Shown here: positions 14,836 to 62,956 of the stretch, piece after piece
Numbering within the stretch: the first letter of the stretch is position 1
How the letters are laid out: each line of letters opens with the position of its first letter
Origin: Escherichia coli
GTDB taxonomy: Bacteria > Pseudomonadota > Gammaproteobacteria > Enterobacterales > Enterobacteriaceae
Length of the DNA stretch: 64,000 nucleotides
Assembly (NCBI RefSeq): GCF_017348835.2
Contig: NZ_CP071375.1
Direction: 5' to 3' (one strand)
Made by a program: the position numbers and the translations under genes
Notes under the pieces: model-generated
What the model was told of the DNA's origin: nothing
The model's database searches: none
Seen by the model: only the letters and a program-made list of their open reading frames with translations

Positions 14836-14841
14836 GCAACC

Positions 14842-14923: not shown

Positions 14924-14948
14924 ATCTGGAGTTTGGCATCAGTCAAAA

Positions 14949-15676: not shown

Positions 15677-15837
15677 TTTTAAGTTTTAACTTCCTTATAG
15701 TAAGTAAACAGCCACATCTGCGAGTTCTATCCTCATGTGTTCGGAAACTATAGCTCATCAAATCCAAGTTCACAATATGTAAACACTTGCGCGTGATATA
15801 ATTACCCCCAAAATCCTCATAACCACTCTGCAAAAAG

Positions 15838-16611: not shown

Positions 16612-16635
16612 TTCCCTGAATTCCCTGATGAAGAA

Positions 16636-34756: not shown

Positions 34757-34766
34757 CTTGTTCTCC

Positions 34767-36787: not shown

Positions 36788-36933
36788 TGCTTACTCTCTT
36801 AATTGTTCGTATACGAACGTTATTGTTAACATACTCCTTCATTTCCACAGCGGCAAGGATTGAAAAGTAACAACATCTTCTTCGTCACTAAAAAACCGCT
36901 ATGATAGCGACAGAGAATTAGCCCGGAGTTTAC

Positions 36934-42682: not shown

Positions 42683-43392
42683 TATGTATTCTCCTGATGG
42701 ATGGTTCGGGTGAGGTAAAACTCGGCCAGTGCCAAATCTTCCGGGCGCGTGACTTTAATGTTATCCGCGCGGCCTTCGACCAACTGAGGATGGAATCCGC
42801 AATATTCCAGCGCCGAGGCTTCATCGGTAATGGTAGCGCCTTCATTTAGAGCGCGCGTCAGGCAGTCATGTAACAGCTCACGAGGGAAAAATTGCGGCGT
42901 CAGCGCGTGCCATAAGCCGTTGCGATCAACGGTATGAGCAATGGCATTTTTGCCCGGTTCGGCACGTTTCATAGTATCGCGCACTGGTGCGGCGAGGATC
43001 CCCCCCGTGCGGCTGGTTTCGCTCAACGCCAACAATCGCGCGAGGTCATCCTGATGCAGACAAGGACGAGCGGCGTCATGCACCAATACCCACTGCGCGT
43101 CGCCAGCGGCTTTCAGACCTGCCAGCACGGAATCGGCACGCTCATCACCGCCATCTACAACGGTGATTTGCGGATGATTCGCCAGAGGAAGTTGTGCAAA
43201 ACGGCTATCGCCAGGACTTATGGCAATGACGACACGTTTCACCCGGGGATGCGCCAGCAGCGCATGCACCGAGTGTTCAAGAATGGTTTGATTACCGATT
43301 GAGAGATATTGCTTAGGACATTCCGTTTGCATTCGACGGCCAAATCCGGCCGCCGGAACCACGGCGCAAACATCCAAATGAGTGGTTGCCAT
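42682..43392 (-). CDS. ispD: 2-C-methyl-D-erythritol 4-phosphate cytidylyltransferase
   Basis: 236-aa ORF with a nucleotidyltransferase fold ([11 protein letters not shown]); stop overlaps the ispF start. Confidence 0.93.
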
Positions 43393-43410
43393 GTTAATTC
43401 CCGGGCTGAT

Positions 43411-43722
43411 TTATCGATTGTTTTGCCCCGCAGACTGTGCGCGCTTCGACGCGTCAGGTATCAGACGATAAAAAGTTTCGCCCGGCCTGGTCATGCTGAG
43501 TTCATTACGCGCACGCTCTTCGAGCGCCTCCTGGCCGCCATTGAGATCGTCAATTTCGGCAAAAAGTTGATCGTTTCGCGCTTTAAGTTTCGCGTTTGTA
43601 GCTTGCTGTGCCGCCACATCATCATTGACGCGGGTATAGTCATGTATACCGTTCTTACCGAACCACAGCGAATACTGTAGCCAGACCAGAATAGCCAGCA
43701 ACAGCAGCGTTAGTTTACCCAT
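43411..43722 (-). CDS. ftsB: cell division protein
   Basis: 103-aa ORF with an N-terminal TM segment and coiled coil. Confidence 0.9.
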
Positions 43723-43915
43723 CCTGCCCCCTGAAAAACGGCATCATCATCCCATGCATCCGAAGACGACTCTACATCCTCTGTTGGGGATACCGCGACA
43801 ACGCGGGCAAATGTACCACATTTGTCCATTGTTACGTATACCCAGGGCGTGCAGAACATAATCTCATTATTAGTTACGGTTTGAATTATGAACAGAGGAG
43901 ACAAGAAAGTACAAA

Positions 43916-44239
43916 TTAGCCCAGTAGCCACATAAACAGTGCGCCAAACATAATGCCTACTGTCATCAGGGTGAAAACAATACTGTAGCGTAGCTTTCCG
44001 TCCATCAATGAATGCAGCGCAATCCCCACCACTACCGCGACGGGCATCAGCGCAAGAAAGAAAGGCCAGGTGTAGATAAAGAAGAACAGCGTGTTAGAGC
44101 CATAAATCAACATCGGCATCGCCAGCGCAAATAACCAGGAGATAAAACCGACCACGGCACCAGGCAGTGACCATGTGGTTTCTTCATCCTCAGTAAGGCT
44201 GTCGTTATTTGTTAGTGTAATGTTATGGCTATTACGCAT
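43916..44239 (-). CDS. ygbE: small inner-membrane protein
   Basis: 107-aa hydrophobic ORF between cysC and ftsB. Confidence 0.8.
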   Translation of the reverse strand: MRNSHNITLTNNDSLTEDEETTWSLPGAVVGFISWLFALAMPMLIYGSNTLFFFIYTWPFFLALMPVAVVVGIALHSLMDGKLRYSIVFTLMTVGIMFGALFMWLLG

Positions 44240-44288
44240 ATTTGATCCTGTTACTTTGACGAACCGGGCATGGAAACCCGGTGGTGTC

Positions 44289-44894
44289 TCAGGATCTGAT
44301 AATATCGTTCTGTCTCAACAGATCTAATAATTGCTGTACCAAATTTGTTACTAATTGTTCACCATTGAGATGAATTTCTGCCGATTCAGGCGCTTCGTAA
44401 ACGGAATCTATTCCCGTAAAGTTGCGCAGTTCACCGGCACGCGCTTTCTTATATAAGCCTTTTGGATCGCGGGCTTCGCAAATCGCCAGCGGCGTATCGA
44501 CAAACACTTCGATAAAGCGCCCTTCTCCTACGCGTTCGCGAACCATCTGGCGTTCGGCGCGGTGTGGCGAGATAAATGCGGTCAGCACCACCAGTCCGGC
44601 TTCAACCATCAAATTCGCCACTTCACCGACGCGACGGATATTCTCTTTACGATCGGCATCGCTAAAACCGAGATCGCTGCATAATCCGTGGCGAACATTA
44701 TCGCCATCCAGCAGATACGTACTGACGCCGAGTTTATGTAACGTCTCCTCCAGCGCCCCGGCGACCGTTGATTTACCGGACCCGGAGAGGCCGGTAAACC
44801 ACAGCACTACACCACGATGACCGTGGTGTAGCTCGCGTTGTTGCACAGTGACCGGATGGCTATGCCAGACGACGTTTTCGTCATGCAGCGCCAT
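44289..44894 (-). CDS. cysC: adenylylsulfate kinase
   Basis: 201-aa ORF with a P-loop (GLSGSGKST). Confidence 0.93.
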
Positions 44895-46321
44895 TATTTA
44901 TCCCCCAGCAAATCGCGCGCGCCCCAGTGCGGAAAGTGGCGACGAACCAGGGCATTCAATTCCAGTTCGAATGCACTGAATTCAGATGGCGCAGCAGTTG
45001 CCTGGCTAACTGGCTCGTGCACCATACCGGCACCTACGGTCACATTGCTCAGGCGATCGATAAAAATCAGCCCACCGGTAACCGGGTTTTGCTGATAACG
45101 ATCTAACACCAGTGGCTCGTCAAAAGTGAGATCCACCAGGCCGATGCCGTTCAGCGGCAGGTTTTCAACTTCGCGTTGGGTAAGGTTATTAATATCAACC
45201 TGATAACGAATGCCATCAACACGAGCACGCGTCTTCTTACCGGCAATTTTGATGTCGTAACTCTGGCCCGGGGAAAGCGGCTGTTCCGCCATCCATACCA
45301 CATCCACCGACGCGCTCTGCACAGCTGGTAACGCTTCGTCTGCCGCCAGCAGCAGATCGCCACGGCTGATGTCGATCTCATCCGTCAGCACCAGGGTGAT
45401 CGCTTCTCCGGCAAAGGCTTCTTCGCGATCACCATCAAAAGTCACGATCCGCGCGACGTTTGATTCCACACCAGAGGGCAGCACTTTGACACGTTGCCCG
45501 ACTTCCACGCGACCGGATGCCAGCGTTCCGGCGTAGCCACGAAAATCGAGATTCGGGCGATTAACGTACTGCACCGGGAAGCGCATTGGCTGAGCATCCA
45601 CCACTCGCTGGATCTCCACGGTTTCCAGCACTTCGAGCAGTGTCGGACCGCTGTACCACGGCATACTTTCACTTTGCGAAGCCACGTTGTCACCTTCCAG
45701 TGCGGAGAGCGGCACAAAGCGGATATCCAGATTACCCGGCAGCTGCCCGGCAAAGGTCAGATAATCTTCACGAATACGGGTGAACGTCTCTTCACTGTAA
45801 TCCACCAGATCCATTTTGTTGATCGCCACGACCAGATGTTTGATCCCCAACAATGTGGAGATAAAACTGTGACGACGGGTTTGATCGAGCACGCCTTTAC
45901 GGGCATCGATCAGTAAAATCGCCAGTTCACATGTCGATGCGCCAGTCGCCATATTGCGGGTGTACTGCTCGTGTCCTGGGGTGTCGGCGATAATAAATTT
46001 ACGCTTCTCGGTAGAGAAATAGCGGTAGGCCACATCAATAGTGATGCCCTGTTCGCGCTCAGCTTGCAGGCCGTCCACCAGCAGTGCCAGATCCAGCTTT
46101 TCGCCCTGGGTGCCGTGACGTTTACTGTCGTTATGCAGCGATGAGAGCTGATCTTCGTAGATTTGGCGGGTATCGTGCAGCAGGCGACCAATCAGGGTAC
46201 TTTTGCCGTCATCGACGCTACCACAGGTCAGAAAACGCAGCAGGCTTTTATGTTGTTGCGCAATCATCCAGGCTTCGACGCCGCCTTCATTGGCGATTTG
46301 TTGTGCAAGTGCGGTGTTCAT
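44894..46321 (-). CDS. cysN: sulfate adenylyltransferase subunit 1 (GTPase)
   Basis: 475-aa EF-Tu-like GTPase ([18 protein letters not shown]). Confidence 0.93.
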
Positions 46322-46322
46322 C

Positions 46323-47231
46323 TTAAAAATACCCCTGACGTTTTTTCAGCTCCATAGACCCCGCCTGGTCGCGGTCAATCACGCGGCCCTGACGTTCACT
46401 GGTGGTGGAAACCAGCATCTCTTCGATGATTTCCGGCAGTGTTTGTGCATTTGACTCCACCGCACCGGTCAGCGGCCAGCAGCCCAGCGTACGGAAACGC
46501 ACCATCCGTTTTTTAATCACTTCGCCCGGTTGCAGGTCGATACGGTTGTCATCAATCATCATCAACATACCGTCGCGTTCCAGAACCGGACGTTCCGCAG
46601 CGAGATACAGCGGCACAATGTCGATATTTTCCAGCCAGATGTATTGCCAGATATCCTGCTCGGTCCAGTTAGAGAGCGGGAAGACGCGGATGCTTTCGCC
46701 TTTGTTAATTTGCCCGTTGTAGTTGTGCCACAGCTCCGGGCGCTGATTTTTCGGATCCCAGCGATGGAAGCGGTCACGGAAAGAGTAGATTCGCTCTTTA
46801 GCGCGGGATTTCTCTTCGTCACGGCGCGCACCACCGAAGGCGGCATCAAAACCGTATTTGTTCAGCGCCTGTTTCAGGCCTTCAGTTTTCATAATATCGG
46901 TATGTTTCGCGCTGCCGTGCACGAATGGATTAATCCCCATCGCCACGCCTTCCGGGTTTTTATGCACCAGCAGCTCGCAGCCGTAGGCTTTCGCCGTACG
47001 ATCGCGGAACTCATACATCTCGCGGAATTTCCAGCCGGTATCGACATGCAGCAACGGGAAAGGCAGCGTACCTGGATAAAACGCCTTGCGCGCCAGATGC
47101 AGCATGACGCTGGAATCTTTACCGATAGAGTAGAGCATCACCGGATTTGAGAATTCTGCCGCCACCTCGCGAATAATGTGGATACTTTCCGCCTCCAGTT
47201 GCTGCAGGTGAGTAAGTCGTTTTTGATCCAT
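46323..47231 (-). CDS. cysD: sulfate adenylyltransferase subunit 2
   Basis: 302-aa PAPS-reductase-fold ORF, first gene of cysDNC. Confidence 0.93.
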
Positions 47232-47482
47232 AACCGTTCCTTTGCAATACCGCTATTTTCTTGCCATCAGATGTTTCGACTATAGGGAGCGTAAGAGAAC
47301 GAATGAAATTACCAATTAGAATGAGTAGTTCCTTAACGGAATAACGATTTGGCAAAGCTAATATCAAAAAGTGCTTAAGGCACCGGATTTCGGGCGTTTA
47401 GGAAGATTTGAAATTGTTTTAGCGCAGCGGCAGTTTCATACTATGGCGGTAAAAAAATTTGCATGGTATTTAAGGACTCACT

Positions 47483-48520
47483 ATGTTTTCCGCATTGCGC
47501 CACCGTACCGCTGCCCTGGCGCTCGGCGTATGCTTTATTCTCCCCGTACACGCCTCGTCACCTAAACCTGGCGATTTTGCTAATACTCAGGCACGACATA
47601 TTGCTACTTTCTTTCCGGGACGCATGACCGGAACTCCTGCAGAAATGTTATCTGCCGATTATATTCGCCAACAGTTTCAGCAAATGGGTTATCGCAGTGA
47701 TATTCGGACATTTAATAGTCGGTATATTTATACCGCCCGCGATAATCGTAAGAGCTGGCATAACGTGACAGGAAGTACGGTGATTGCCGCTCATGAAGGC
47801 AAAGCGCCGCAGCAGATCATCATTATGGCGCATCTGGATACTTACGCCCCGCTGAGCGATGCTGACGCCGATGCCAATCTCGGCGGGCTGACGTTACAAG
47901 GAATGGATGATAACGCCGCAGGTTTAGGTGTCATGCTGGAATTGGCAGAACGCCTGAAAAATACGCCTACCGAGTATGGTATTCGATTTGTGGCGACCAG
48001 CGGCGAAGAGGAAGGGAAATTAGGCGCTGAGAATTTACTCAAGCGGATGAGTGACACCGAAAAGAAAAATACGCTGCTGGTGATTAATCTCGATAACTTA
48101 ATTGTTGGCGATAAATTGTATTTCAACAGCGGTGTAAAAACCCCTGAAGCAGTAAGGAAATTAACGCGCGACAGGGCGCTGGCAATTGCGCGCAGTCATG
48201 GAATTGCCGCAACGACCAATCCGGGTTTGAATAAAAATTATCCGAAAGGCACTGGGTGTTGTAATGACGCAGAAATATTCGACAAAGCGGGCATTGCTGT
48301 ACTTTCGGTGGAAGCGACTAACTGGAATCTTGGGAATAAGGATGGTTATCAGCAACGCGCAAAAACAGCCGCATTCCCTGCGGGAAATAGCTGGCATGAT
48401 GTAAGGCTTGATAATCAACAGCATATTGATAAGGCACTTCCTGGAAGAATAGAACGTCGCTGCCGTGATGTTATGCGGATAATGCTACCACTGGTGAAGG
48501 AGCTGGCGAAGGCGTCTTGA
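47483..48520 (+). CDS. iap: alkaline phosphatase isozyme conversion aminopeptidase
   Basis: 345-aa ORF with a signal peptide and M28-like peptidase core, adjacent to the CRISPR array. Confidence 0.88.
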   Translation: MFSALRHRTAALALGVCFILPVHASSPKPGDFANTQARHIATFFPGRMTGTPAEMLSADYIRQQFQQMGYRSDIRTFNSRYIYTARDNRKSWHNVTGSTVIAAHEGKAPQQIIIMAHLDTYAPLSDADADANLGGLTLQGMDDNAAGLGVMLELAERLKNTPTEYGIRFVATSGEEEGKLGAENLLKRMSDTEKKNTLLVINLDNLIVGDKLYFNSGVKTPEAVRKLTRDRALAIARSHGIAATTNPGLNKNYPKGTGCCNDAEIFDKAGIAVLSVEATNWNLGNKDGYQQRAKTAAFPAGNSWHDVRLDNQQHIDKALPGRIERRCRDVMRIMLPLVKELAKAS

Positions 48521-48540
48521 TGGGTTTGAAAATGGGAGCT

Positions 48541-48814
48541 GGGAGTTCTACCGCAGGGGCGGGGAATTCTCAGTGATATCCATCATCGCATCCAGTGCGC
48601 CCGGTTTATCCCCGCTGGCGCGGGGAACACTGCAGGTTTTTAGGGATAGTCACTGCAATACGCGGTTTATCCCCGCTGGCGCGGGGAACACGCAAGCCGC
48701 CCATTTGACGGTCACGCCAGTTACCGGTTTATCCCCGCTGGCGCGGGGAACACCCGGGATAGCCGATAACGATGGCGGCTCTGGGCGGTTTATCCCCGCT
48801 GGCGCGGGGAACAC
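48541..48814 (-). CRISPR. short type I-E CRISPR array: 4 intact 29-bp repeats plus one degenerate terminal repeat, 4 spacers
   Basis: CGGTTTATCCCCGCTGGCGCGGGGAACAC occurs at 48602-48630, 48663-48691, 48725-48753 and 48786-48814, with spacers of 32, 33 and 32 bp. A degenerate copy (18/29) lies at 48541-48569, leaving a 32-bp spacer at 48570-48601. Minus-strand repeat is GTGTTCCCCGCGCCAGCGGGGATAAACCG. Confidence 0.92.
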
Positions 48815-48910
48815 ACTAAGCATACATATCTGTTTTTAAACAAATTTATTCCACATCAACAATCTACCAACTAAATTCAAACATTTCCTTATTTTTAAAG
48901 AACACATAAC
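48815..48910 (-). promoter_or_regulatory. AT-rich CRISPR leader
   Basis: About 96 bp of AT-rich sequence between the last intact repeat and the cas2 remnant, the normal leader position for an E. coli I-E array. Confidence 0.55.
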
Positions 48911-49237
<327 letters not shown>

Positions 49238-49241
<4 letters not shown>

Positions 49242-50800
49242 TCAGCAGCCTCCTGCTTTTTCTCCCTGGCGGCTTTAGCACTTTGCTTCTCCGCCGATGT
49301 TGTAAAATATTTCTTGCGCGCGGTCATGACGCGTTCCAAATCAACGGGCTCATAAGGATTGGTGAATACACGCTCGTCAAAATCCTGACGTGCGAATAAC
49401 CAAATTTCCTTTTGCCATTTGCCGAGTAATTCATCCGCATCCTGACCTTCTTCAATTTGGCGCACTAACCTCAGGAAGCGATGCTGAGTTTTGTTCCAGA
49501 AGTCGATATCCACAAAACTGAAATCACCCCTTGCACCTTTTGGATCGGAGAACCATGCTTCTTTCAATGCACTCCGTAACAGACTCAGAATCCGTGAAGC
49601 CGTTTGCGCAGCCAGCCGCAGCTTCGGTATCTGGCCTTCTTTTTTATTGAGCAATAGAGGGAAATGGTGTTCGTACCAACAGCGAACCTTCATATCTTCG
49701 AAATCATAACCAAATCCCCACAAGCCTATTTTTGTCTGCTTTAGATTGCTGGCATTGAAAAGCTTCACTACCTGTGCGGGGAGTTCAGTATTGTTTTTTG
49801 ATTTACCTTCCTCTATGAGGCCTAACCAGTCGCGCCAGATTAAACCACCTGGTTGTGGTTTAACTGAGTAAAACTCTCCTCCCTCTTTAAGCGGCATACG
49901 GTAAGGTGTTAGAGGATGCCTCCACATGACGTATTGCACCCCATTGTTTTTAAGTGCCATCAAGCTCAATAGAGCGCCGCTCTGACTACCGCAAATATCG
50001 CAGTTGCCAATTGAGGTTGTCTTAAAATCAATACGAATACGCCGAGGCATTCCCCAGTAGGCCTGAAGTTTATTGACTTGTTCATCGGTTATCACAGCAC
50101 CATCCAGTTCACTGGTACGCGTCGGTGCAAGCCAGGGAAAGACCAGGTCATCAAAGGTTTTTGGTAAAGGTAAATCGGCTTCATCCTGTGGCATTACGTT
50201 AAGCCACAGCTTGCGCCACAAAGGGGGTTGTGGATTGCCCTGATACTCCAGCAATTCTATAAGTGTGGTCAGCGGCCCCCCGCCACGTAACCCCGGATAG
50301 TAACCGCGTCCACCTTTGGGAGCATTCAGCTGGATTGAAAAAAGTGCTAAAGGCACACAATGCAGGCATATATGCTGAATTGTATCTCGCTTAATAAAAT
50401 GGTCTTTATTTCGTTCTTTTGTTTGTTTTCCTGGTATGTCAGGAAGAAGCGAAGCAATAGAACTAACCTTAACTCTTAATTCTTCGAAATCCTGCATAAA
50501 TGAAGGTGAATCTGGCCCGAACTGGAAAGCATGTTCTAATAACAGCAATGCTTCCCGTAGCTTTTCGGCTTCCAGTCCGTCTTCCCAGATATCATCCCAA
50601 CGACGATGATCTTTTGGCGCGAAGCTGGTTTGTAGTAACCCCAGCAAAAACTGCCAGGCCGCCCCCTGGAGATCTGCCCGCGGCGCAGCGATATCGACAA
50701 CATTTTCATCCGCCAGATCGACTGGCGCCAGTTTGCCTGTCGTTCCGTCTTTAAAACGAACGGGCAACCACGGGGTTGTCAGAAGTGAAAACGAGTTCAT
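49238..50800 (-). CDS. casA: Cascade large subunit Cse1/CasA (variant distinct from the K-12 allele)
   Basis: 520 aa from MNSFSLLTTPWLPVRFKDGTTGKLAPVDL, a Cse1-type N-terminus; sits between cas3 and the cse2 start with the usual ATGA overlap. The start could instead be the upstream Met at 50860. Confidence 0.7.
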
Positions 50801-53538
50801 ACGCATCCTCTCGTAAAAAAGACCATCCAGGTCGGTTATCCATCCTTTTCGGTGTATCAACTATTCAGAGAGTCTCTGTCGCAGGCATCTCAATCAACCT
50901 TGCCAATCAATCCCTCCCTGGCCGAATACCCGCAACTTTCGTCATCAGTGACTAAAATCACGTTTGCCATCTCCGGATCTTGCCGTTGTTCAACACACCA
51001 CTGCCTGAACGCTTCCCCTTCCAGTAAAGAAAATTCATCCCGATGTTTTTTCCACCAGCTTCGACGCACTCTGGCAACGCTCATTTCCCATGCGTGAGCA
51101 CCGCTGGCATAAGGCTTCACCACACCGTCAATACAGGTAGCCAGCCACAGGGAAACAGACTCTTCAGCCAGACGTGTCGACAGCTTTTCCGGGAGGTAAT
51201 CGTTGATATTGGCGGCATAGCCGGGCCTGAAGTTCAGCATAAACTTTTTAGCCATTGCGCGATCGCAGTAATATTTGCCCACTTGCTCCTGCTCGCTGCG
51301 GGCAAATCCTTCCGGCATTACCACGTCCTCACCGTAGACGGATTCAATAAGAAGCCGGGCTGCGTGTGGCATCTGAATAGCGCCTTGCTCACGCAATACT
51401 CGCTGCGTCAGCCAGATTCGCCCATGATCGGGGTAGACATATGCGCTGTTACGCATCGCACTGCCAAACCATTCGTCACCCGGAGAGTCGTCCCAGACGG
51501 GGGCCAGAATCAGCAATTCAGGAGGGGAACGCTCGTCTTTTCCATCACGCTTTAACTGACCATTAATATCGCGAATATGCCGTTGTAATCGCCCCGCTCG
51601 CTGGATCAGCAAATCAATGGGGGCCAGGTCGGAGATCATTTCGTCCAGGTCAATATCCACACTTTGCTCAATTACTTGTGTACAAACAATGACTTGAGAT
51701 GATCTTTTTAAACTACAATTTTTACCAAAGCGTGCCAGCGTTTCCGTTTCAATTCGCTGGCGATCGCTAAAAGCAAAGCGGCTATGAAAAAGTGAAAGGC
51801 TGGAAGCAGGAATGACGCCGCGGGCAAGTAACTGACGATAAACCTTAATAGCGTCATCGACAGAATTCCGGATCCAGGCGATGCATTTCCCCTGACTTAC
51901 CGCTGATTCGATACGCGCAATACATTCTTGTTCGCTATGAAGCCAACCCACGCTCACGCTACGCTCAACGTCTTTGCGCGTCGCTACCCGGTGCGAATGC
52001 ACATCGGATTTCGTGACATGCGTCAGCCAGGGGTAATCATCCTTTTCCAGGAACGGAGCTTCTTGCTGGCCCTCTGTGCCACGCGCAAAGGCGGCGACAA
52101 GTTTGTCGCGCTGCTGTTGAGATAACGTAGCAGAAAGCAAAATGACGCTGTTTCCGCCACGCACCTGTCGCTCAATCAACCCTTCAAGAATGTACGACAT
52201 GTAAGCGTCACAGGCGTGGATCTCATCAGCCAGCAGGATTTTGTTACTCAACCCCAGAAGCCGCAGATTATTATGTTTAAACGGCATCACTGCCATCATC
52301 GCCTGATCCAGCGTGCCGACGCCAATTTCAGCCAGTAAAGCCTTCTTGTTACTGTCGGCAAACCAGGCTGCACATCCTTGACTGAACGCTTGTTCATCCG
52401 GTTCTTCTGACCCGACTAAATCACCGGACCAGAGTGATTCATTAAAGCGTTCCATTAATGTACGGGCGCTGTGTGCCAGCACCAGGCTGGGGCGGGATTC
52501 TGGCGAAAAGAAAGCAAGCCAGGTTTTGACCAGCCGATCGTACATGGCATTGGCCGTTGCCATTGTTGGCAGGCCAAAAAACAAACCCTGTGCTTTCCTC
52601 GCAGCCATCAACCTGTGCGCCAGGATAAGCGCCGCTTCTGTTTTACCTGCGCCAGTCACGTCTTCCAGAATAAATAACTTTGGCCCTGGCTGGCTGATAT
52701 CCAGATCCAGCACCTTTTGCTGTAATGGTGTCGGGTGCTCAATAAAAGGAAACAGCGTATTAATTCCGGTGAAAGGTGCGGTTTCTGCTTTTGGAGGAAA
52801 GACGGTTAAGGCGTTTTGAGCCTGAACTAAAGTTTTCTGCCAGTAATCTTTAATATCCATTGGGTGTGCGACGCGTGGAAAAAATCGCGTTGACGAACCC
52901 GTCCAGTCTGCGAGTACGACTGTTGCAGAGATATACCAGGAAAGTTGTTTTAAAAGTTCAACGCCCTCGTCATCATCCCAGAATGTGGGAATCTCTATGA
53001 GCGGAAACAGTGCCTTGATTTCAAGGAGAAAATCTCGCGCGGCAGCTTTGTCTTCAGGCAGAAAATTATCCAGCTCATCAATACGGTCAGGTGGTCGACC
53101 ATGATGCCCGGTAGTTATGGACATCCACATCTCTATTACACGTGTAAGTTTACGAGAAGAGAGTGAAGATGAAGGAAGCAACTCCTCACATTCACTTAAA
53201 TAATAATTCCACAGCCAGTAACCCAGCGTTGAATGAGAGATCTTTTCGTAATTCTTTCTGGAACCTTCCGGAATCTTGAGTTCAGGGGCCAGGTAAAGTT
53301 GCTGAAAAGAGCGGGCAAATTTTCCAATATCGTGCCAGCACAACAACCAGGCGAAAAATTGAGCCGCCTGTTCCTTGTCAGAAATCCCTAATTGACGAAA
53401 ATAATCAGCCAGCCCGAAGCAATTTCTTTTAACCATTAAATAGCCCATCGCGGCCACATCCAGCGAATGCCAGCAAAGAAGGTGTGAACCGCCCCGGAAA
53501 TCCTGGAGACTAAACTCCCTGAGAAAGAGGTAAACAGG

Positions 53539-53865
53539 ATGACTAAAAATACTCGTTTTTCCCCCGAAGTCCGTCAGCGGGCGATTCGTATGGTTCTGGA
53601 AAGTCAGGATGAATATGACTCACAGTGGGCGGCAATTTGTTCCATTGCCCCAAAGATTGGCTGTACGCCGGAGACTCTGCGTGTCTGGGTTCGCCAGCAT
53701 GAGCGGGATACCGGGAGTGGTGATGGTGGACTCACCACCGCTGAACGTCAGCGTCTGAAAGAGCTGGAACGTGAAAATCGTGAACTGCGCCGCAGTAACG
53801 ATATCCTTCGCCAGGCTTCCGCTTATTTTGCGAAGGCGGAGTTCGACCGCCTCTGGAAAAAATAA
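53539..53865 (+). CDS. IS3-family transposase OrfA (HTH / leucine zipper)
   Basis: 108-aa [25 protein letters not shown]... that I recognise as IS629/IS1203-type OrfA. Confidence 0.85.
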
Positions 53866-54752
53866 TGCCACTGCTGGATAAGCTGCGTGAGCAGTACGGG
53901 GTCGGACCGGTATGCAGCGAACTGCATATTGCCCCGTCAACGTATTACCATTGTCAGCAACAGCGACATCATCCGGATAAACGCAGTGCCCGTGCGCAGC
54001 ACGATGACTGGCTGAAGAAAGAGATACAGCGCGTATACGATGAAAATCACCAGGTATACGGTGTGCGTAAAGTCTGGCGTCAGTTGTTACGGGAAGGTAT
54101 CAGAGTGGCCAGATGCACTGTGGCACGTCTCATGGCAGTTATGGGACTTGCCGGTGTTCTCCGGGGTAAAAAGGTCCGCACTACCGTCAGCCGGAAAGCC
54201 GTTGCCGCATGCGACCGCGTAAACCGTCAGTTCGTGGCAGAACGTCCAGACCAGTTGTGGGTGGCTGATTTTACCTGGGTAAGCACATGGCAGGGCTTCG
54301 TTTATGTGGCGTTCATCATTGATGTGTTCGCCGGATACATCGTGGGATGGCAGGTCTCATCATCCATGGAAACAACATTCGTGCTGGATGCACTGGAGCA
54401 GGCGTTGTGGGCCCGTCGGCCGTCCGGCACAATCCATCACAGTGATAAAGGTTCTCAGTATGTATCGCTGGCCTACACGCAGCGGCTTAAGGAAGCCGGA
54501 TTACTGGCATCAACAGGGAGTACTGGCGACTCGTATGACAACGCGATGGCTGAGAGCATCAATGGTCTTTACAAAGCGGAGGTAATACACCGTAAGAGCT
54601 GGAAAAACCGGACAGAAGTGGAACTGGCCACACTAACGTGGGTGGACTGGTATAACAATCGACGATTGCTGGAAAGGCTGGGCCATATTCCTCCGGCAGA
54701 AGCAGAAAAAGCTTATTATGCTTCCATCGGAAATAATGATCTGGCAGCCTGA
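53865..54752 (+). CDS. IS3-family transposase OrfB (DDE integrase core)
   Basis: 295-aa ORF with an rve-type catalytic core (...HHSDKGSQY...YDNAMAESINGLYKAE...); its ATG overlaps the orfA stop (TAATG). Confidence 0.85.
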   Translation: MPLLDKLREQYGVGPVCSELHIAPSTYYHCQQQRHHPDKRSARAQHDDWLKKEIQRVYDENHQVYGVRKVWRQLLREGIRVARCTVARLMAVMGLAGVLRGKKVRTTVSRKAVAACDRVNRQFVAERPDQLWVADFTWVSTWQGFVYVAFIIDVFAGYIVGWQVSSSMETTFVLDALEQALWARRPSGTIHHSDKGSQYVSLAYTQRLKEAGLLASTGSTGDSYDNAMAESINGLYKAEVIHRKSWKNRTEVELATLTWVDWYNNRRLLERLGHIPPAEAEKAYYASIGNNDLAA

Positions 54753-55067
54753 GTTCACAGATAAAACACTCTCCAGGAAACCCGGGGCGGTTCAGTGATA
54801 GTCGTCACCCCCTTCTTTCTCGTCGCGTCGGGTTTTTCCCCAGAAATCAAAGAAAGTCACAATATTTTTATCCTTCAGTAAACTTAAAGGATATTTACGC
54901 ATATTTTAAAAATTATCTGTGATATATATCAGCCAATAAAACATTTATATTGTGAATAAATTTATGATTTTCATTTGAAATTCATAATAATAAATAGAGA
55001 CAATATATTCACATAAAAAATATAAATTTAAAAAAGGGTGCAGGAGACCAAACCATCACAATTCAAT

Positions 55068-55089
55068 ACGCGGGGTTTTACCCCCGCGT
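55068..55089 (-). terminator. hairpin terminator downstream of the hok-like gene
   Basis: acgcggggttttacccccgcgt stem-loop 6 nt after the hok stop, followed on the minus strand by a T-rich tract. Confidence 0.5.
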
Positions 55090-55094
55090 GGTGG

Positions 55095-55247
55095 CTACTT
55101 CTTCGATTCGTAAGCGAGAACAGCCTTAAACTCCATACCACGTTCCCTGATACTCAACTCACACAACGAGTCGCCTACCATCAGCGTGAATCCCAGTACT
55201 GTACAACACAGTACGATGATTGCCACAAGGGCATATTTTGTCAGCAT
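55095..55247 (-). CDS. Hok/Gef-family small membrane toxin
   Basis: 50-aa [53 protein letters not shown] with an N-terminal TM helix and the conserved SLCE...AYES C-terminal pattern; not in the supplied ORF track because it is below the size cutoff. Confidence 0.75.
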
Positions 55248-55308
55248 GTCTGTGTAAGTTCACAGAGATATTGCAATTGCCTCCGGATAAGTAAGGGGAG
55301 ATTGCACT

Positions 55309-56330
55309 ATGCAAATGCAGCATCTGATGGTTGGCTATCCTAAGTACTACCAAACGGCCGATTATGCGTTGAGGCTTTCAGTGATGGCTGATATAGCAAC
55401 AATGAGAATGAAGGCTCTGCACTTCTGGGATAAACACGGTATTTCTGCAGCTTCTGAAGCCTTTGGCGTGTCCTGCCGCACGCTTTACTGGTGGCGTCAG
55501 TTACTGAACAAGGAAGGACCTGAGGGGCTAATCCCGCACAGTAAGGCACCTCTGGTGCGACGAAAAAAACACTGGCATCCCGATGTGCTGAAAGAGATTC
55601 GACGCCTCAGGACAGAGCTGCCGAACCTCGGTAAAGAGCAGATTTTTGTTCGCCTGAAGCCCTGGTGCGAACAGCGCTATCTGGCCTGTCCGAGTGTTTC
55701 CACCATCGGCAGAATGATCGCTGCCGCACATGATAAAATGCGGATGATACCTGTGCGTCTGGGATCGCGGGGGAAGGCACTGCTTGTCAAAAAGCGGTCT
55801 GCCAAACCCCGCAGGCCAAAGCACTACCGCCCGGTAAAGACAGGTGAGCTCATTGGGATGGACGCCATTGAGCTCAGAATGGGCGAACTGCGTCGCTATG
55901 TCATCACCATGATCGACGAATGCAGCAATTACGCGCTGGCTGTGCCGTCACTCAACAGTGATATCGTCAATCACTTCTTCAGCCGCGCAGCCCGGTTGTT
56001 CCCGGTCGGTATCAGCCAGATAATCACAGATAACGGAAAAGAGTTCCTGGGAAACTTCGACAAAACGCTGCAGGAAGCCGCTATCAAACACCTCTGGACC
56101 TATCCCTACACGCCAAAAATGAACGCTATCTGTGAACGTTTTAACCGGACGTTAAGAGAGCAGTTTATTGAATTTAATGAGATTTTACTCTTTGAAGATC
56201 TGGCGCTATTTAACCAGAAGCTGGCGGAATATCTGGTGCTGTATAACAGCAAAAGACCCCACAAGGCGCTCGCACTAATGACGCCCGTGGAATATATTTT
56301 AAAAGAGAATAAAAATTGCAATATGTGGTG
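55309..56330 (+). CDS. DDE (rve/integrase-core) transposase, IS481-family-like; element ends not resolved
   Basis: N-terminal HTH (ISAASEAFGVSCRTLYWW) followed by an integrase core (ITDNGKEF...YTPKMNAICERFNRTLREQ...YNSKRPHKAL). The listed ORF runs on to 56739 into cysH antisense, which I take as read-through; the true 3' end is estimated near 56300-56330. Confidence 0.6.
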
Positions 56331-56606
56331 GACCCATACAATGTCTTGCCTCCCTGCAAAGAAGAGACTAACATTCGAATTGCTTAGGTTCGAACGCTGG
56401 CCTCAGGTTGATAGAAATATCGCCTGGGGCTTTTGTCCATCTGGAACCTCGCGAATGCTTAACGCCAGACAGCCTCAAGCACCCGACGCCATTCTATACC
56501 TGATAATTCTTCCAGCGGCGTTCACGTTTAAAATCAGGAATGCTGCTCGCAAAATAAAAACGCCCCCATCATTTCTGACAGAGGCGTTTAATTTATCCGG
56601 CAATAT

Positions 56607-57341
56607 TTACCCTTCGTGTAACCCACATTCCCTTTTTAAGCCAAAGAAACGCGTTTCTTCTTCCGCCATGCCAGGTTCCCATTTACGGGTTGTATGGGTA
56701 TCACCGACCGATAAATATCCTTCGTCCCATAATGGGTGATATTTCAGGCCATGCTTTTGCAGATACTGATATATCGTTCGGTTATCCCAATCGATAATCG
56801 GTAGCACTTTAAATACGCCACGCTGAATTGTCAGCACCGGTAAATTGGCGCGGCTGCCGGATTGTTCGCGGCGCAGGCCAGCAAACCACGTTTGCGCGTT
56901 AAGTTCTTTCAGCGCCCGGTTCATCGGTTCGACTTTGTTGATGTCATTGTACTTTTCAATGCCTTCAACGCCCTGCTCCCACAGTTTTCCGTAGCGTGCT
57001 TCCTGCCAGGCTGCGCTTTCGGTAGCACGGTACACTTTCAGGTTGAGCTTGAGTTTGTCCGTTAACTCGTCAATAAAGCGGTAGGTTTCCGGGAACAAGT
57101 AACCGGTATCGGTGAGGATCACTGGAATATCCGGGCGAATCTGATTCACCAGATGCAGGCTCACCGCCGCCTGAATGCCGAAGCTGGAAGAAAGCACATA
57201 TTCACCGGGCAGATTATCCAGCGCCCAGGCTACGCGGCCTTCAGCGTCCAGTTTTTCCAGTTGGGCGTTAGTTTCCGCCAGCGCCAGAATGCGATCTACC
57301 TTCGGCAGTTCGTTCAGGGCGTTTAGATCGAGTTTGGACAT
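56607..57341 (-). CDS. cysH: phosphoadenosine phosphosulfate reductase
   Basis: 244 aa from [22 protein letters not shown] with C-terminal ECGLH. The listed ORF starts 51 codons upstream. Confidence 0.93.
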
Positions 57342-57362
57342 AGATTCCTCACTGTTTGCCTT

Positions 57363-57398
57363 GCCTGATGCGACGCTCACGCGTCTTATCAGGCCTAC
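57363..57398. repeat. REP element between cysI and cysH
   Basis: gcctgatgcgacgctcacgcgtcttatcaggcctac palindromic unit. Confidence 0.55.
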
Positions 57399-57414
57399 AA
57401 GACCGGGCTGATGG

Positions 57415-59127
57415 TTAATCCCACAAATCGCGCGCCGGATCGAGCACCGGGCGAATGATGCCCGCACGCACCGTAAAGTCGCCGAAGCCTTCACCCGCTT
57501 CGCGCTCTTTCGCCCAGCGCCCTATCAGTTCATCAAGCGACGCCAGGATTTCCGGCTCGGTGATGTTTTCTTTATACATCCGTGGGATACGTGTCCCAAT
57601 ACGGTTGCCGCCAAGATGCAGGTTGTAGCGACCCGGCGCTTTACCCACCAGCCCCACTTCCGCCAGCATCGCGCGACCACAACCGTTCGGGCAGCCTGTT
57701 ACACGCATCACGATATGCTCATCGCTGACACCATGTTTCGCCATTAAATTATCGATGTTGTCGATAAAAGACGGCAGGAAACGCTCCGCTTCCGCCATCG
57801 CCAGCGGGCAAGTCGGGAATGACACGCAGGCCATTGAGTTTTCACGCTGCGGCGTGACGGCATTCATTAACCCGCTCTCTTTAGCGATCTTCTCGATCTT
57901 CGCTTTCTCGCTTTCCGGCACACCGGCGATGATCAGATTCTGGTTCGCCGTAATGCGGAAATCACCTTTGTGGATCTTCGCGATCTCCAGCAGGCCGGTT
58001 TTCAGCGGACGCCCCGGATAATCAAGGATGCGACCATTTTCGATAAACAGCGTCAGGTGCCAGTTATCATCAATGCCCTTAACCCAGCCAATACGATCTC
58101 CACGTCCGGTGAACTCATACGGACGGATCGGTTCAAATTTGATCCCCGCGCGACGTTCCACTTCCGCTTTAAATGTCTCAACACCCACGCGCTCCAGCGT
58201 GTATTTGGTTTTGGCATTTTTACGATCGGTACGGTTACCCCAATCGCGCTGAGTCGTCACGACGGCTTCCGCCACCGCCAGGGTATGCTCCAGCGGCAGA
58301 TAACCAAACTCGCTCGCCGTGCGGGCGTAGGTTTTCTTATTACCGTGTTCGATGGAAAGCCCGCCGCCCACCAGCAGGTTAAAGCCTACCAGCTTGCCGT
58401 TTTCGGCGATTGCCACGAAGTTCATGTCGTTGGCATGCAGATCGATATCGTTCTGCGGCGGGATCACTACCGTGGTTTTGAATTTACGCGGCAAATAAGT
58501 CTGACCGAGGATCGGTTCTTCATCGGTGGTGGCGACTTTTTCCTGATCGAGCCAGATCTCCGCATACGCGCGGGTACGCGGCAGCAGATGTTCAGAGATT
58601 TTCTTCGCCCATTCATACGCTTCCGCGTGTAGCTGCGACTCGTAAGGGTTCGAGGTACAGAGTACGTTACGGTTCATGTCGTTAGCGGTCGCCAGCGCAT
58701 CAAGACCGACTGAGTGCAGCATCTGGTGCACCGGTTTGACGTTCTTTTTCAGAATGCCGTGGAACTGAAACGTCTGGCGGTTGGTCAGGCGAATGCTGCC
58801 ATAGATGGTGTTTTCACCGGCAAATTTGTCGATCGCCTGCCACTGTTTAGTGGTAATCACCCCACCCGGCAGACGGCAGCGCAACAGCATCGCGTGGCGC
58901 GGCTCCAGCTTCTGTTCAGCACGTTCGGCGCGGATGTCGCGGTCATCCTGCTGATACATGCCGTGGAAGCGGATCAGCAGGAAGTTGTCGCCCTTAAAGC
59001 CGCCGGTCAGACCGTCGTTTAAATCTTCCGCAATGGTGCCGCGCAGGTAGTTGCTTTCAAGCTTCATGCGCTCGGCGTCTGTCAGTTTTCCTTCGACCAC
59101 TAAAGGCCCTGGATGTTTTTCGCTCAT
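57415..59127 (-). CDS. cysI: sulfite reductase hemoprotein beta subunit
   Basis: 570-aa ORF with siroheme/4Fe-4S Cys motifs (CPNGC...C). Confidence 0.93.
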
Positions 59128-60926
59128 TAGTAGACATCTCGCTGATAACGGCGCTCTACGCGCAGCTCACTTAAAAATTCATCCGCCGCTTCGGTGTCCA
59201 TGCCACCAAATTCGGCAATCACTTCCAGAAGTGCCTGCTCAACGTCTTTCGCCATGCGATTAGCGTCGCCGCAGACATAAATGTGGGCACCGTCATTGAT
59301 CCAGCGCCACAGCTCCGCGCCCTGTTCGCGCAGTTTATCTTGTACGTAAACTTTTTCTTTTTGGTCGCGCGACCAGGCGAGATCGATCCGCGTCAGCACA
59401 CCCTCTTTGACGTAGCGCTGCCACTCCACCTGATACAGGAAGTCTTCCGTAAAATGCGGATTGCCAAAGAACAGCCAGTTTTTACCTGGCGCTTCGTCAG
59501 CGGCGCGTTGCTGCATAAAGGCGCGGAACGGCGCAATACCGGTGCCTGGGCCAATCATAATCACCGGGGTTTCCGGGTTAGCGGGCAGGCGGAAGTTATC
59601 GTTATGTTCGATAAATACGCGGACTTCGCCCTCTTCTTCCACGCGGTCCGCGAGGAAGCTGGAGGCACCACCAGCACGGGCGCGGCCTTCCACGTCGTAA
59701 CGCACCACACCAACGGTGACGTGTACTTCGTTCTCGACTTCCGCCTGCGAGGAGGCAATGGAATAGAGACGCGGCGTCAGCGGGCGCAGCAGATTAATTA
59801 GCGCTTCGGCATCAAGCTGTGCCGGGGAGAAACGCACCATGTCAACAATCGGCGTCGTCGCGGCGTAATGCTGTAACTTCGCTTTATCGCCCACCAGCGG
59901 CAGCAGTGTTTCACTGCGGGTAAGCGTGGCGTAATTCTCAACAATGTTGGCGGTGTTGACGGTCAGTTCGAAGTGCCACTGTAGCGCTTCGTTCAGAGGC
60001 AACGTTTTGCCCTCGACGGTGACAGGTTCATCGCCTTTCAGCCACAGCAGTTCGACAAGTTCTTTCACTAGTGCCGGATCGTTCTGATACCAGACACCCA
60101 GCGCGTCACCCGGCTGGTAACGCAGGCCCGAGTCACCTAAGTCAATTTCGATATGGCGAACGTCTTTTTCAGAGTTACGCCCGGTAATTTTCTGGTTAAC
60201 CGAAAGGCTCGCCACCAGCGGCGCGTCTTTGCTGTACGGGCTGGTGTGGATTTCATTTACCACGCCAGTAGCGACGGATTGCAAAGGTGCCGCGACAGGC
60301 GCACGCGATTTAAGCGCATCAACCACGCGGGCGCGCCACTCGCTGGCAGCAGCCTGGTATTCAACGTCGGCGTCGACACGGTCGAGCAGGCGTTCACCGC
60401 CCAGTTCCGCCAGCTTGCTGTCGAAATCTTTCCCGGACTGGCAGAAAAATTCATAAGAACTATCGCCGAGGCTAAACACGGCAAAAGCGGTATTTTCCAG
60501 CTTCGGCGCTTTTTTGGAGAACAGGAACTTATGCAGCGCGACGGCTTCTTCCGGCGGTTCCCCTTCTCCTTGCGTTGACGTCACCACGATAAGCAGTTTT
60601 TCGCTGGCGATTTGTTTGAATTTATAGTCGCCCGCGTTCACCAGCTTAACGTTCAGTTTTGCCGTCAATAAATCATCGCGTAATGCTTCAGCAACCCGGC
60701 GCGCATTGCCGGTTTGCGAAGCAGAGATAATAGTTATACCCGGCATTTCTGCGGCTGGCGCTGGCGTCGCTGCAAGCGCAGCAGGCTGCTGATTGAGCAC
60801 GCCCCAGAAATAGCCAGAAACCCAGGCAAGCTGGGTGGGAGTTAAATCGGTCGTGGCCGCCTGAAGGCGTGCCAGTTGCTCCGGGTTCAACGGAAGCAAC
60901 GCGGAAGGTGGGACCTGTGTCGTCAT
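59127..60926 (-). CDS. cysJ: sulfite reductase flavoprotein alpha subunit
   Basis: 599-aa ORF with flavodoxin-like and FAD/NADPH-binding domains. Confidence 0.93.
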
Positions 60927-61241
60927 GCGTCGTTATGTTCCAGTAAGCAAAGCTGTTTCTGCGCCCTGTCAGCGCCCATAAAACAGAAGAGAAGGTAAGG
61001 TTAACGGGGTGAACGGTGTGGATTAAAGACGGGATAGCGATAACTAATAACCAAATCGACTAACCTGTTTTAGCAATAGTCTTTAACAACAAAATAGATT
61101 AACCAACCTAATGAAAAACAAATGAATTTAGCCAATCATTAAGATAAATCAGCGATTTTGCGCAACAAAGTCGTTTTAGATAATGCGAAAAAACAGCCTT
61201 TCCGGTACTCTACGGCGGTTTTATCGTCCTGTAGAGAAATT

Positions 61242-61607
61242 ATGATGTCCACCACGTTATTTAAAGATTTCACCTTCGAAGCCGCTCACCGCTTACCACA
61301 CGTCCCGGAAGGGCATAAATGTGGTCGCCTGCACGGGCATTCCTTTATGGTGCGACTGGAAATTACCGGGGAAGTCGATCCGCATACGGGCTGGATTATC
61401 GATTTCGCTGAACTAAAAGCGGCGTTTAAGCCAACTTATGAGCGCCTCGATCACCATTATCTCAATGATATTCCAGGTCTGGAAAACCCAACTAGCGAAG
61501 TTTTAGCAAAATGGATTTGGGATCAGGTTAAACCCGTTGTGCCGCTGTTAAGTGCGGTGATGGTAAAAGAAACCTGCACCGCAGGGTGCATCTATCGCGG
61601 CGAATGA
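61242..61607 (+). CDS. queD: 6-carboxy-5,6,7,8-tetrahydropterin synthase
   Basis: 121 aa from [35 protein letters not shown] (QueD CxxxHGH signature). The listed ORF starts 28 codons upstream. Confidence 0.9.
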
Positions 61608-61684
61608 TAAGAGTGTGTCGGCGGTCAATTTCCCTTAAGTAACGCTATGTTAGGGTGTTGTGTTCAGGATATCTGGGGCATGAC

Positions 61685-62956
61685 ATGGAAGACGACTGCG
61701 ACATTATTATTATTGGTGCCGGTATTGCAGGCACCGCTTGTGCGTTACGCTGCGCGCGAGCGGGTTTATCCGTTTTGTTACTGGAACGCGCTGAAATCCC
61801 CGGCAGCAAAAATCTTTCCGGCGGGCGGTTATATACCCATGCACTCGCGGAACTCCTCCCGCAATTTCATCTGACCGCGCCTCTTGAACGACGCATCACT
61901 CACGAAAGCCTTTCCCTGTTAACGCCGGATGGCGCAACGACGTTTTCCAGCTTACAGCCCGGCGGTGAATCCTGGAGTGTATTACGTGCACGGTTCGATC
62001 CGTGGCTGGTTGCCGAAGCCGAAAAAGAAGGTGTCGAATGCATCCCTGGTGCGACGGTGGATGCACTGTATGAAGAAAACGGCAGGGTGTGTGGTGTCAT
62101 TTGTGGTGACGATATTCTCCGCGCCCGTTATGTGGTGCTGGCAGAAGGTGCCAACAGCGTCCTGGCTGAACGTCACGAGTTAGTGACTCGTCCTGCTGGC
62201 GAAGCGATGGCGTTGGGGATCAAAGAAGTGCTGTCGCTGGAAACATCCGCTATTGAAGAACGTTTTCATCTGGAGAATAACGAAGGCGCAGCGTTGCTGT
62301 TCAGTGGCGGAATCTGTGATGACTTTCCCGGCGGCGCATTTCTTTATACTAATCAACAAACGCTCTCGTTAGGGATTGTTTGCCCGCTCTCTTCCCTTAC
62401 GCAAAGCCGTGTTCCGGCAAGCGAGCTGCTGACTCGCTTTAAAGCGCATCCGGCAGTGCGCCCGCTTATCAAAAACACGGAATCACTGGAGTATGGTGCG
62501 CATCTGGTGCCAGAAGGTGGCTTGCACAGTATGCCGGTACAATACGCCGGTAACGGCTGGCTGCTGGTGGGCGATGCGTTACGCAGTTGCGTCAATACCG
62601 GAATCTCCGTGCGCGGCATGGATATGGCGCTGACTGGCGCACAGGCGGCGGCACAAACGCTGATAAGCGCCTGCCAGCACCGCGAGCCGCAAAATCTGTT
62701 TCCGCTTTATCATCACAACGTAGAGCGCAGCCTGCTGTGGGATGTTCTACAGCGTTATCAGCATGTTCCGGCGCTTTTGCAACGCCCTGGCTGGTATCGG
62801 GCGTGGCCTGCGTTAATGCAGGATATTTCCCGCGATTTATGGGATCAGGGTGATAAACCTGTTCCACCGCTGCGCCAATTATTCTGGCGTCATTTACATC
62901 GTCACGGCCTGTGGCATCTGGCGGGCGATTTTATCAGGAGTCTGCGATGTCTGTAG
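61685..62956 (+). CDS. ygcN: FAD-dependent oxidoreductase (ETF-QO/FixC-like)
   Basis: 423 aa from MEDDCDIIIIGAGIAGTACA (FAD-binding GxGxxG). Confidence 0.85.
   Translation: MEDDCDIIIIGAGIAGTACALRCARAGLSVLLLERAEIPGSKNLSGGRLYTHALAELLPQFHLTAPLERRITHESLSLLTPDGATTFSSLQPGGESWSVLRARFDPWLVAEAEKEGVECIPGATVDALYEENGRVCGVICGDDILRARYVVLAEGANSVLAERHELVTRPAGEAMALGIKEVLSLETSAIEERFHLENNEGAALLFSGGICDDFPGGAFLYTNQQTLSLGIVCPLSSLTQSRVPASELLTRFKAHPAVRPLIKNTESLEYGAHLVPEGGLHSMPVQYAGNGWLLVGDALRSCVNTGISVRGMDMALTGAQAAAQTLISACQHREPQNLFPLYHHNVERSLLWDVLQRYQHVPALLQRPGWYRAWPALMQDISRDLWDQGDKPVPPLRQLFWRHLHRHGLWHLAGDFIRSLRCL

Follow-up and report, generated by a model that had tools for sequence, protein, structure and literature searches.

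The insertion sequences IS629, IS1203 and IS3411 of E. coli and Shigella have been treated as isoforms (PMC3271280); they share a length of 1310 bp, TG...CA ends, a 3-bp target-site duplication and an orfA/orfB pair that carries an ALIL pseudoknot and is joined by a -1 frameshift. For IS629, duplications of 3–4 bp have been published and no strict target sequence has been reported (PMC3271280). The element described here, which lies in a 64-kb stretch of DNA (the window) from E. coli PE164, a strain from a pig in China, is alike in all these features, with no structural difference. Natural inactivation of cas genes by insertion sequences has also been described (Nat Commun 2023, PMC10359306), and PE164 resembles those cases in that the IS lies inside a type I-E cas gene and that removal in silico of the element and one copy of the duplication restores the gene. 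There, however, the IS is presented as the event that disabled immunity, possibly under selection, whereas in PE164 a 3.87-kb deletion came first and the IS struck a relic. The locus is also like other decayed type I-E loci of E. coli in its position (iap – CRISPR1 – cas – hok/sok – cysH), its repeat sequence and its short array, and in other strains the same genes have been hit by insertion sequences or carry frameshifts or internal stops; what sets PE164 apart is the combination of its casB-cas2 deletion with an IS629 at codon 36 of cas3, which occurs in one of 5426 complete E. coli genomes. We regard this allele as very probably the product of a recent, simple transposition of a known IS629-type element into the relic cas3 of an already disabled system.

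The IS629-type element and its identity

By direct reading of the sequence, the element occupies positions 53485–54794 on the + strand (1310 bp), opening with TGAACCGCCCCGG... at 53485 and closing with ...CCGGGGCGGTTCA at 54794. Its left flank ends in ...AAGGTG, the last three letters of which (53482–53484; CAC on the - strand, codon 36 of cas3) form the left copy of the target-site duplication, and the right flank opens with the other GTG (54795–54797), placed both by direct reading and by the empty site in the sister strain F2_81. The left terminal inverted repeat (53485–53509, + strand, 25 nt) starts with 5'-TG and is 88% complementary to the right one (54770–54794, - strand), with which it pairs and which ends in CA-3'. 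The inverted repeats described in an earlier note on this DNA were borne out on re-inspection: a perfect core of 13 nt extends into imperfect arms of 25 nt that match at 22 of 25 positions (TGAACC...GGTTCA), and the 13-mer is present at just two places in the window, both of them ends of the element (chance expectation, 0.05). The 3-bp match between the flanks would by itself have a chance probability of 1/64, but these very 3 bp are what the two flanks have in common when aligned to the naturally empty site of F2_81. The GTG duplication that had been claimed on both sides thus holds, and at 3 bp it falls in the published range for IS629. The length (within the ~1.2–1.55 kb of the IS3 family), the imperfect inverted repeats with 5'-TG...CA-3' termini and the short (3–4 bp) direct duplication, which is represented by a single GTG in F2_81, are all those of the IS3 family. 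Further IS629 ends, which would point to a composite element or a rearrangement, were sought in the window and none was found.

The coding content is equally typical of that family. Two ORFs that overlap in different frames (0 and -1) lie on the + strand and hence opposite to cas3, as had been stated before: orfA (53539–53865; 108 aa, HTH_Tnp_1) and orfB (53865–54752; 295 aa, HTH_21 and the rve DDE integrase core), the latter shifted by -1 against orfA. The orfA stop and the orfB start overlap in TAATG, within a + strand region (53820–53936) that matches the ALIL frameshift-stimulating pseudoknot (Rfam RF01497, 120.3 bits; gathering score, 50), and a slippery A6 run stands at 53857–53862; an A-rich slip site with a downstream structure is again the IS3 arrangement. 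The domain matches are those of an rve-type DDE transposase with an N-terminal HTH (Pfam: rve 8.8e-25, HTH_21 4.4e-18, HTH_Tnp_1 1.9e-10), and the fused 404-aa OrfAB covers the IS3 transposase model NF033516 from 1 to 369 of 369 in one stretch, at 362 bits (cutoff 160).

The designation of the 1310-bp element as IS629-like was likewise upheld. Over all 1310 bp it is 99.5% identical to the copy annotated as 'OrfA/OrfB of IS629' in phage BP-4795, which places it, judged against that copy, at the isoform level of ~95% nucleotide identity or more. Its identity is 100% with copies from other E. coli genomes, 98.3% with those of O157 Stx2a phages and 95.8% with the 13TMH22 copy named 'IS1203 family' by PGAP, the last value being inside the published 4–5% spread of IS629 subtypes. 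The name rests on the depositor's annotation of BP-4795 and on the published treatment of IS629, IS1203 and IS3411 as isoforms (PMC3271280), not on the ISfinder type sequence, whose source is Shigella sonnei. PE164 carries an expanded IS629 population of about 30 chromosomal matches (32 matching places in its chromosome and 27 in that of F2_81). With intact ORFs and inverted repeats, a young insertion and ~30 copies in the genome, the copy in cas3 is putatively active in transposition.

The split cas3 gene and the surrounding locus

The type I-E cas3 gene lies on the - strand and is split after codon 36. Its ATG stands at 54902–54900, so that the duplicated triplet, GTG on the + strand, reads as the CAC (His) of codon 36, which is where the earlier note had placed the insertion. 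The 5' stub (54795–54902, - strand; codons 1–36 from the ATG at 54902), a partial pseudogene in RefSeq, reads MRKYPLSLLKDKNIVTFFDFWGKTRRDEKEGGDDYH*, and the TGA directly after codon 36 comes from the IS end. The body (50890–53484, - strand) runs from the other copy of codon 36 to the stop and encodes the HD nuclease and SF2 helicase without a promoter or start codon, its earliest canonical in-frame start being the GTG at 53457 (residue 45). Excision of 53485–54797 in silico gives a single open frame of 899 codons (...GGDDYH-LLCWHSLDVAAMGYL...), in agreement with what had been claimed. The restored 899-aa protein has the domain arrangement of a type I-E Cas3, an N-terminal HD nuclease (cas3_HD, TIGR01596; 92 bits, cutoff 43.45; residues 38–233) followed by an SF2 helicase core (cas3_core, TIGR01587; 227 bits, cutoff 102.45; residues 306–676).

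PE164 itself has no uninterrupted, expressible cas3. RefSeq (PGAP) nevertheless calls an 886-aa 'Cas3' CDS, without a pseudogene flag, from an ATT at 53550 inside the IS, into the left end of which the cas3 frame remains open for 45 codons. We considered this CDS as a real hybrid gene and rejected it: it begins on ATT, the conserved N-terminus is absent, and an ATG, GTG or TTG sought in the cas3 frame upstream of residue 45 was not found. A - strand promoter for the cas3 body was sought in the left end of the IS, also with a negative result, and promoter-like matches in the region are no commoner than in shuffled sequence. The 886-aa 'Cas3' is a mis-annotation, and the reading frames suggest that the insertion is a cas3 null allele with loss of function. 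The earlier note had the element separating both the promoter and the first 36 codons from the HD-helicase body; this stands for the codons, while the promoter is a presumed one, the sole upstream promoter-like match being no better than those in shuffled sequence.

From iap to cysH the genes keep the conserved order. The full set of a type I-E system (cas3, casA–E, that is, cse1, cse2, cas7, cas5 and cas6e, with cas1, cas2 and an array) is no longer complete. The array, CRISPR1 (48602–48814, - strand), is present with four type I-E repeats (GTGTTCCCCGCGCCAGCGGGGATAAACCG), past which come one last spacer and a terminal repeat that is degenerate, and casA (cse1; 49238–50800, - strand) is intact. 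Between them, a deletion of 3.87 kb (3870 bp by BLAST against the intact locus L004), which the earlier reading did not include, has removed most of casB and all of cas7, cas5, cas6e and cas1, leaving a casB'-'cas2 remnant (48911–49241, - strand; junction at ~49133–49137) in which 36 codons of casB are fused to cas2 without its first ~22 codons. This junction is found in PE164 and F2_81 only; on this comparison the deletion was present in the common ancestor of the two strains and predates the IS. Because cas7, cas5, cas6e and cas1 had been deleted earlier, both interference and adaptation were gone before the IS arrived, and the insertion is not what disabled CRISPR-Cas.

A second, IS481-like element lies ~450 bp from the IS629, between hok and sok. 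An ORF of 476 aa at 55309–56739 was rejected as a gene, being an IS481-like transposase frame that runs out of the element across sok.

The empty site and alternative explanations

F2_81 holds the excised 2703-nt sequence in a single piece at 100% identity and is collinear with PE164 for 18.7 kb, a stretch in which the two differ by 1 SNP and 2 small indels; its empty site has one GTG, common to both alignment pieces (3-bp overlap). With an identical uninterrupted sequence and both flanks collinear in this strain, the view that the insertion was simple and involved no rearrangement is confirmed. The filled site is found in one of the 5426 complete genomes, PE164, in keeping with the recent and lineage-private event proposed before. 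In 2424 genomes at least 80% of this cas3 type is covered at one place, a measure that tolerates an insertion of up to ~1.85 kb, and among the genomes listed the cas3 type is uninterrupted in a single piece in all but PE164. Judged by their titles and abstracts, the papers that mention IS629 together with cas3, which survey the genomes of UPEC and of isolates from pigs, do not deal with this allele.

That the change was an insertion in PE164, and not a precise excision in F2_81, would follow from parsimony. The casB-cas2 deletion is found in two genomes only, so that polarity cannot be read from that pair alone, and excision of IS629 in EHEC is reportedly enhanced, as Kusumoto et al. are said to have found in 2011; an ancestral insertion could on this account have been excised precisely in F2_81, for instance via an IS-excision enhancer, making its empty site secondary. 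We consider this very unlikely, given that, of the genomes searched, PE164 is the one with a filled site, that the other genomes listed with this cas3 type have it uninterrupted and that the IS is 100% identical to copies elsewhere, as a young insertion would be; under either polarity, moreover, the element came by the same simple transposition. Misplacement of a repeated IS into cas3 by the assembler is less probable still. Some 30 near-identical copies are a typical setting for misassembly, and three positions elsewhere in the window do not agree with the RefSeq record, which suggests more than one assembly version, but RefSeq assembly version 2 has the same junctions as the window, the 3-bp duplication is perfect and as long as expected of IS629, and the flanks join exactly at the natural empty site. 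Plentiful IS copies are also substrates for recombination, and the element might mark a rearrangement between two of them or a composite transposon; this is the most remote of the alternatives, already refuted by the collinearity of F2_81, with matching duplications, a conserved iap-to-cysH order and flanks that adjoin each other in F2_81, strain Res13-Sevr-PER07-33 and thousands more genomes.

The simple insertion into a relic might instead have been functional and not neutral, either selected against a costly orphan Cas3 or expressed as the hybrid 886-aa Cas3 from the ATT at 53550. In its favour are the frame open into the IS and the PGAP call, the published inactivation of cas genes by IS under selection (PMC10359306) and independent IS629-family hits in type I-E cas genes, namely in cas3 of 13TMH22 (duplication TTC) and in casA of EL361 and O103:H2 strain 129. 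On the other hand, the hybrid frame offers no ATG, GTG or TTG before residue 45 and no - strand promoter-like site in the IS left end, the hybrid would be without the conserved N-terminal 35 residues, and without Cascade there is no complex to recruit Cas3. Mixed lesions of the kind typical of relaxed selection are also seen in other loci under decay; in EL361, cas7 has an internal stop and cas3 is frameshifted. We therefore hold a functional insertion to be highly improbable. Only a little more credence is given to the broader proposal of non-neutrality, that an orphan Cas3 was costly once Cascade was lost or that an N-terminally swapped Cas3 is involved, with the repeated IS629-family hits in cas genes reflecting selection or target preference and not chance. 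The strains in this repeated-hit set are PE164, 13TMH22, EL361 and O103:H2 strain 129.

A likely course of events and its significance

The reading that we prefer, transposition into an already relic cas3, takes its chemistry from the established biology of the IS3 family. With the ALIL pseudoknot as its stimulator, a -1 programmed frameshift on the A6 slip site would yield the OrfAB transposase, and a 3-bp staggered cut at integration would have duplicated GTG. The 5' stub now codes for a 36-aa peptide stopped by the TGA of the IS terminus, and the HD-helicase body is cut off from its presumed promoter, its ribosome-binding site and its start codon. By that time the system was past making Cascade, processing crRNA and acquiring spacers, and the IS hit an orphan cas3; the insertion was most likely a neutral step of decay in a genome where IS629 has expanded.

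The significance of the insertion is little more than bookkeeping. It could serve as a lineage-specific PCR marker for PE164 against F2_81-like strains, and the unflagged 886-aa 'Cas3' in RefSeq means that automated surveys could score the strain as cas3-positive. For E. coli type I-E loci it is a case of routine gene decay, which is known biology and of low interest.

A complete IS629-type element in cas3

The minus-strand type I-E cas3 gene of strain PE164 is split after codon 36 by an IS3-family element of 1310 bp (53485-54794, plus strand) that begins TGAACCGCCCCGG and ends CCGGGGCGGTTCA. It is flanked by two copies of GTG, at 53482-53484 and 54795-54797; these boundaries come from direct reading of 53200-55100 and from script indexing. 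A repeat finder gave terminal inverted repeat arms of 25 nt with 88% complementarity, so that the length, inverted repeats and flanking GTG described in the earlier note were confirmed by reading, script and repeat finder. The terminal 13-mer has only two sites in the 64-kb window, both at the element ends (0.05 matches expected by chance). A copy in Stx phage BP-4795, annotated by its depositors as 'OrfA/OrfB of IS629', matches the element at 99.5% identity along all 1310 bp, as the earlier note's IS629-like label would predict; the copies of many O157 Stx2a phages match it at 98.3%, and several other E. coli genomes carry 100% identical copies. IS629 makes target duplications of 3-4 bp, its subtypes diverge by 4-5%, and IS1203 and IS3411 are its isoforms (Rump et al., PMC3271280). 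The name 'IS629-type', which rests on annotation and literature, is well supported. Matching places number about 30 in the PE164 chromosome versus 27 in the sister strain F2_81.

The transposase genes lie opposite to cas3, as had been noted: orfA (108 aa, 53539-53865) and orfB (295 aa, 53865-54752) are both on the plus strand, with orfB in the -1 frame and overlapping orfA in TAATG. A six-A run (53857-53862) precedes the orfA stop, and the Rfam ALIL pseudoknot, an IS3-family frameshift stimulator, matches at 53820-53936 (120.3 bits; gathering score 50). Fused at the A run, the two frames encode a 404-aa OrfAB with the Pfam domains HTH_Tnp_1, HTH_21 and rve, which aligns in a single stretch with positions 1-369 of 369 of NCBIfam's model for IS3 transposases (362 bits; cutoff 160). 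Together, the A run, the pseudoknot, this full-length match and the domains support a programmed frameshift. The copy is intact and has all parts needed for transposition. By analogy with the established biology of the IS3 family (IS911, IS2 and IS3), OrfAB would be made through a -1 frameshift, copy-out would yield a circular intermediate with abutted ends, and this would be pasted in at a 3-bp staggered cut.

Cas3 reading frames and the empty site

From its ATG (54902-54900), cas3 runs through codons 1-36 (MRKYPLSLLKDKNIVTFFDFWGKTRRDEKEGGDDYH) up to the element, whose terminus contributes a TGA directly afterwards, leaving a 36-aa truncated peptide. Beyond the element the frame resumes as HLLCWHSLDVAAMGYL and stops at 50890. 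In-silico removal of 53485-54797, the check proposed in the earlier note, restored one 899-codon frame whose protein passed the curated cutoffs of two Cas3 models: cas3_HD scored 92 bits against 43.45, over residues 38-233, and cas3_core 227 bits against 102.45. In the interrupted body the earliest canonical in-frame start is a GTG at residue 45, past the start of the HD match. As read from the sequence, the HD-helicase body is left without a start codon and, with the promoter placed in the upstream region by inference, without a promoter. The earlier claim that the element separates the promoter and first 36 codons from this body stands for the 36 codons, the promoter's location being presumptive: the sole promoter-like match upstream of cas3 (54932-54903, minus strand) was no better than shuffled sequence.

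The excised cas3 (2703 nt) is present in one piece at 100% identity in F2_81 (pig, Australia; NZ_CP043542.1), which has a natural empty site. By BLAST, 18.7 kb of F2_81 aligns with the window as two collinear pieces (1-10595 with 42890-53484, and 10593-18703 with 54795-62907), differing by one SNP and two small indels. The pieces overlap by 3 bp, exactly GTG, which settles a simple insertion with target duplication, as the earlier note had it; a rearrangement is excluded by the same duplication and collinearity. Misassembly of the element into cas3 is unlikely, given that the duplication has the correct length and that the RefSeq record shows the same junctions. The right 24.9 kb of the window is 100% identical to PE164 (pig, Nanjing; NZ_CP114128.1); against window 1-39521, that RefSeq record (assembly version 2) has three single-base mismatches in the left 39.5 kb, so that the window may represent a different version of the assembly or an almost identical isolate. 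When a junction-spanning query was run against 5426 complete genomes, the filled site was found in PE164 only, which bears out the suggestion of a recent event; the insertion is young. Precise excision in F2_81 would be unparsimonious, with one filled site among the 5426 and with 2424 genomes in which a single place matches 80% or more of PE164-type cas3, a count that can take in genes with a short insertion, PE164's own row being an example. By parsimony, the insertion took place in the PE164 lineage.

The RefSeq annotation pipeline (PGAP) calls an 886-aa 'CRISPR-associated helicase Cas3'' (WP_410054725.1; 50890-53550, minus strand; no pseudogene flag). The call arises because the frame stays open for 45 codons into the element. 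Its start, however, is an ATT at 53550, inside the left end, the element part of the frame has no canonical start, and a promoter-like site sought in the left end was not found. A functional hybrid Cas3 is therefore not supported, and WP_410054725.1 is an artefact of annotation and could lead automated surveys of cas3 astray.

An older deletion and the surrounding features

The earlier account did not include a casB-cas2 deletion shared by both strains. RefSeq shows casA in PE164 and F2_81 alike, then a 105-nt casB fragment overlapping a shortened cas2. Relative to the intact locus of strain Res13-Sevr-PER07-33, 3870 bp is missing, with loss of cas7, cas5, cas6e and cas1; in the remnant (48911-49241, junction about 49133-49137 by comparison with that locus), casB codons 1-36 are fused to a cas2 without about 22 codons. 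Among the 5426 genomes this junction occurs in PE164 and F2_81 only. As the deletion is common to both strains and the element is in PE164 only, the deletion came first and the IS629 insertion second. With Cascade, Cas6e and Cas1 absent, neither interference nor adaptation is possible, and the element struck an orphan gene. In PI12, a third strain from pig, this interval carries another lesion, which differs from the deletion and apparently arose independently.

A short CRISPR1 array survives, with four perfect repeats at 48602-48814 and, beyond them, a last spacer and a degenerate terminal repeat, yet the annotation of neither PE164 nor F2_81 includes a CRISPR feature. A RefSeq 'hypothetical protein' (WP_404853007.1; 48650-48823, minus strand) sits wholly over these repeats and spacers; as an ORF it is almost certainly spurious.

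An IS481-like element of 1089 bp (55252-56340; TGTA...TACA-type ends, 6-bp target duplication ATGTCT, plus-strand transposase ORF from 55309) has inserted upstream of hok (55095-55247, minus strand), 4 bp from its start codon, and sets hok apart from sok RNA (56335-56484, minus strand; Rfam match). PE164 and F2_81 both carry this element; strain 13TMH22 and the intact Res13-Sevr-PER07-33 locus do not. A 476-aa ORF (55309-56739), rejected as a gene, is the transposase frame running out of the element across sok. At 55933, PE164 has one copy fewer of a 6-bp GCGCTG tandem than F2_81, and 8 bp (ATGTCTTG) beside the element is missing from F2_81. Elsewhere, the interval from hycI to ascB has an annotated toxin-antitoxin pair, a HigB-family toxin with an HTH antitoxin (about 14949-15676, minus strand). 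The mutS-rpoS region is polymorphic among E. coli strains; here it (about 34520-37341) holds a MarR-family regulator and three non-oxidative hydroxyarylic acid decarboxylase subunit genes.

Insertions in other cas loci

IS insertion into cas genes has been published (PMC10359306). In 13TMH22, an IS1203-type copy (locus positions 4001-5310; 95.8% identical) lies mid-cas3 with a TTC target duplication, in the same orientation as in PE164. Strain EL361 has an IS629-family copy in casA (locus positions about 6012-7324); its cas7 also contains an internal stop, and its cas3 is frameshifted. O103:H2 strain 129 appears, going only by the features given with its match, to have such a copy in casA too. 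Hits of this family in the same E. coli I-E locus, independent of that in PE164, are thus readily found. The PE164 insertion is a textbook example: real, recent, correctly read in the earlier note, and ordinary.
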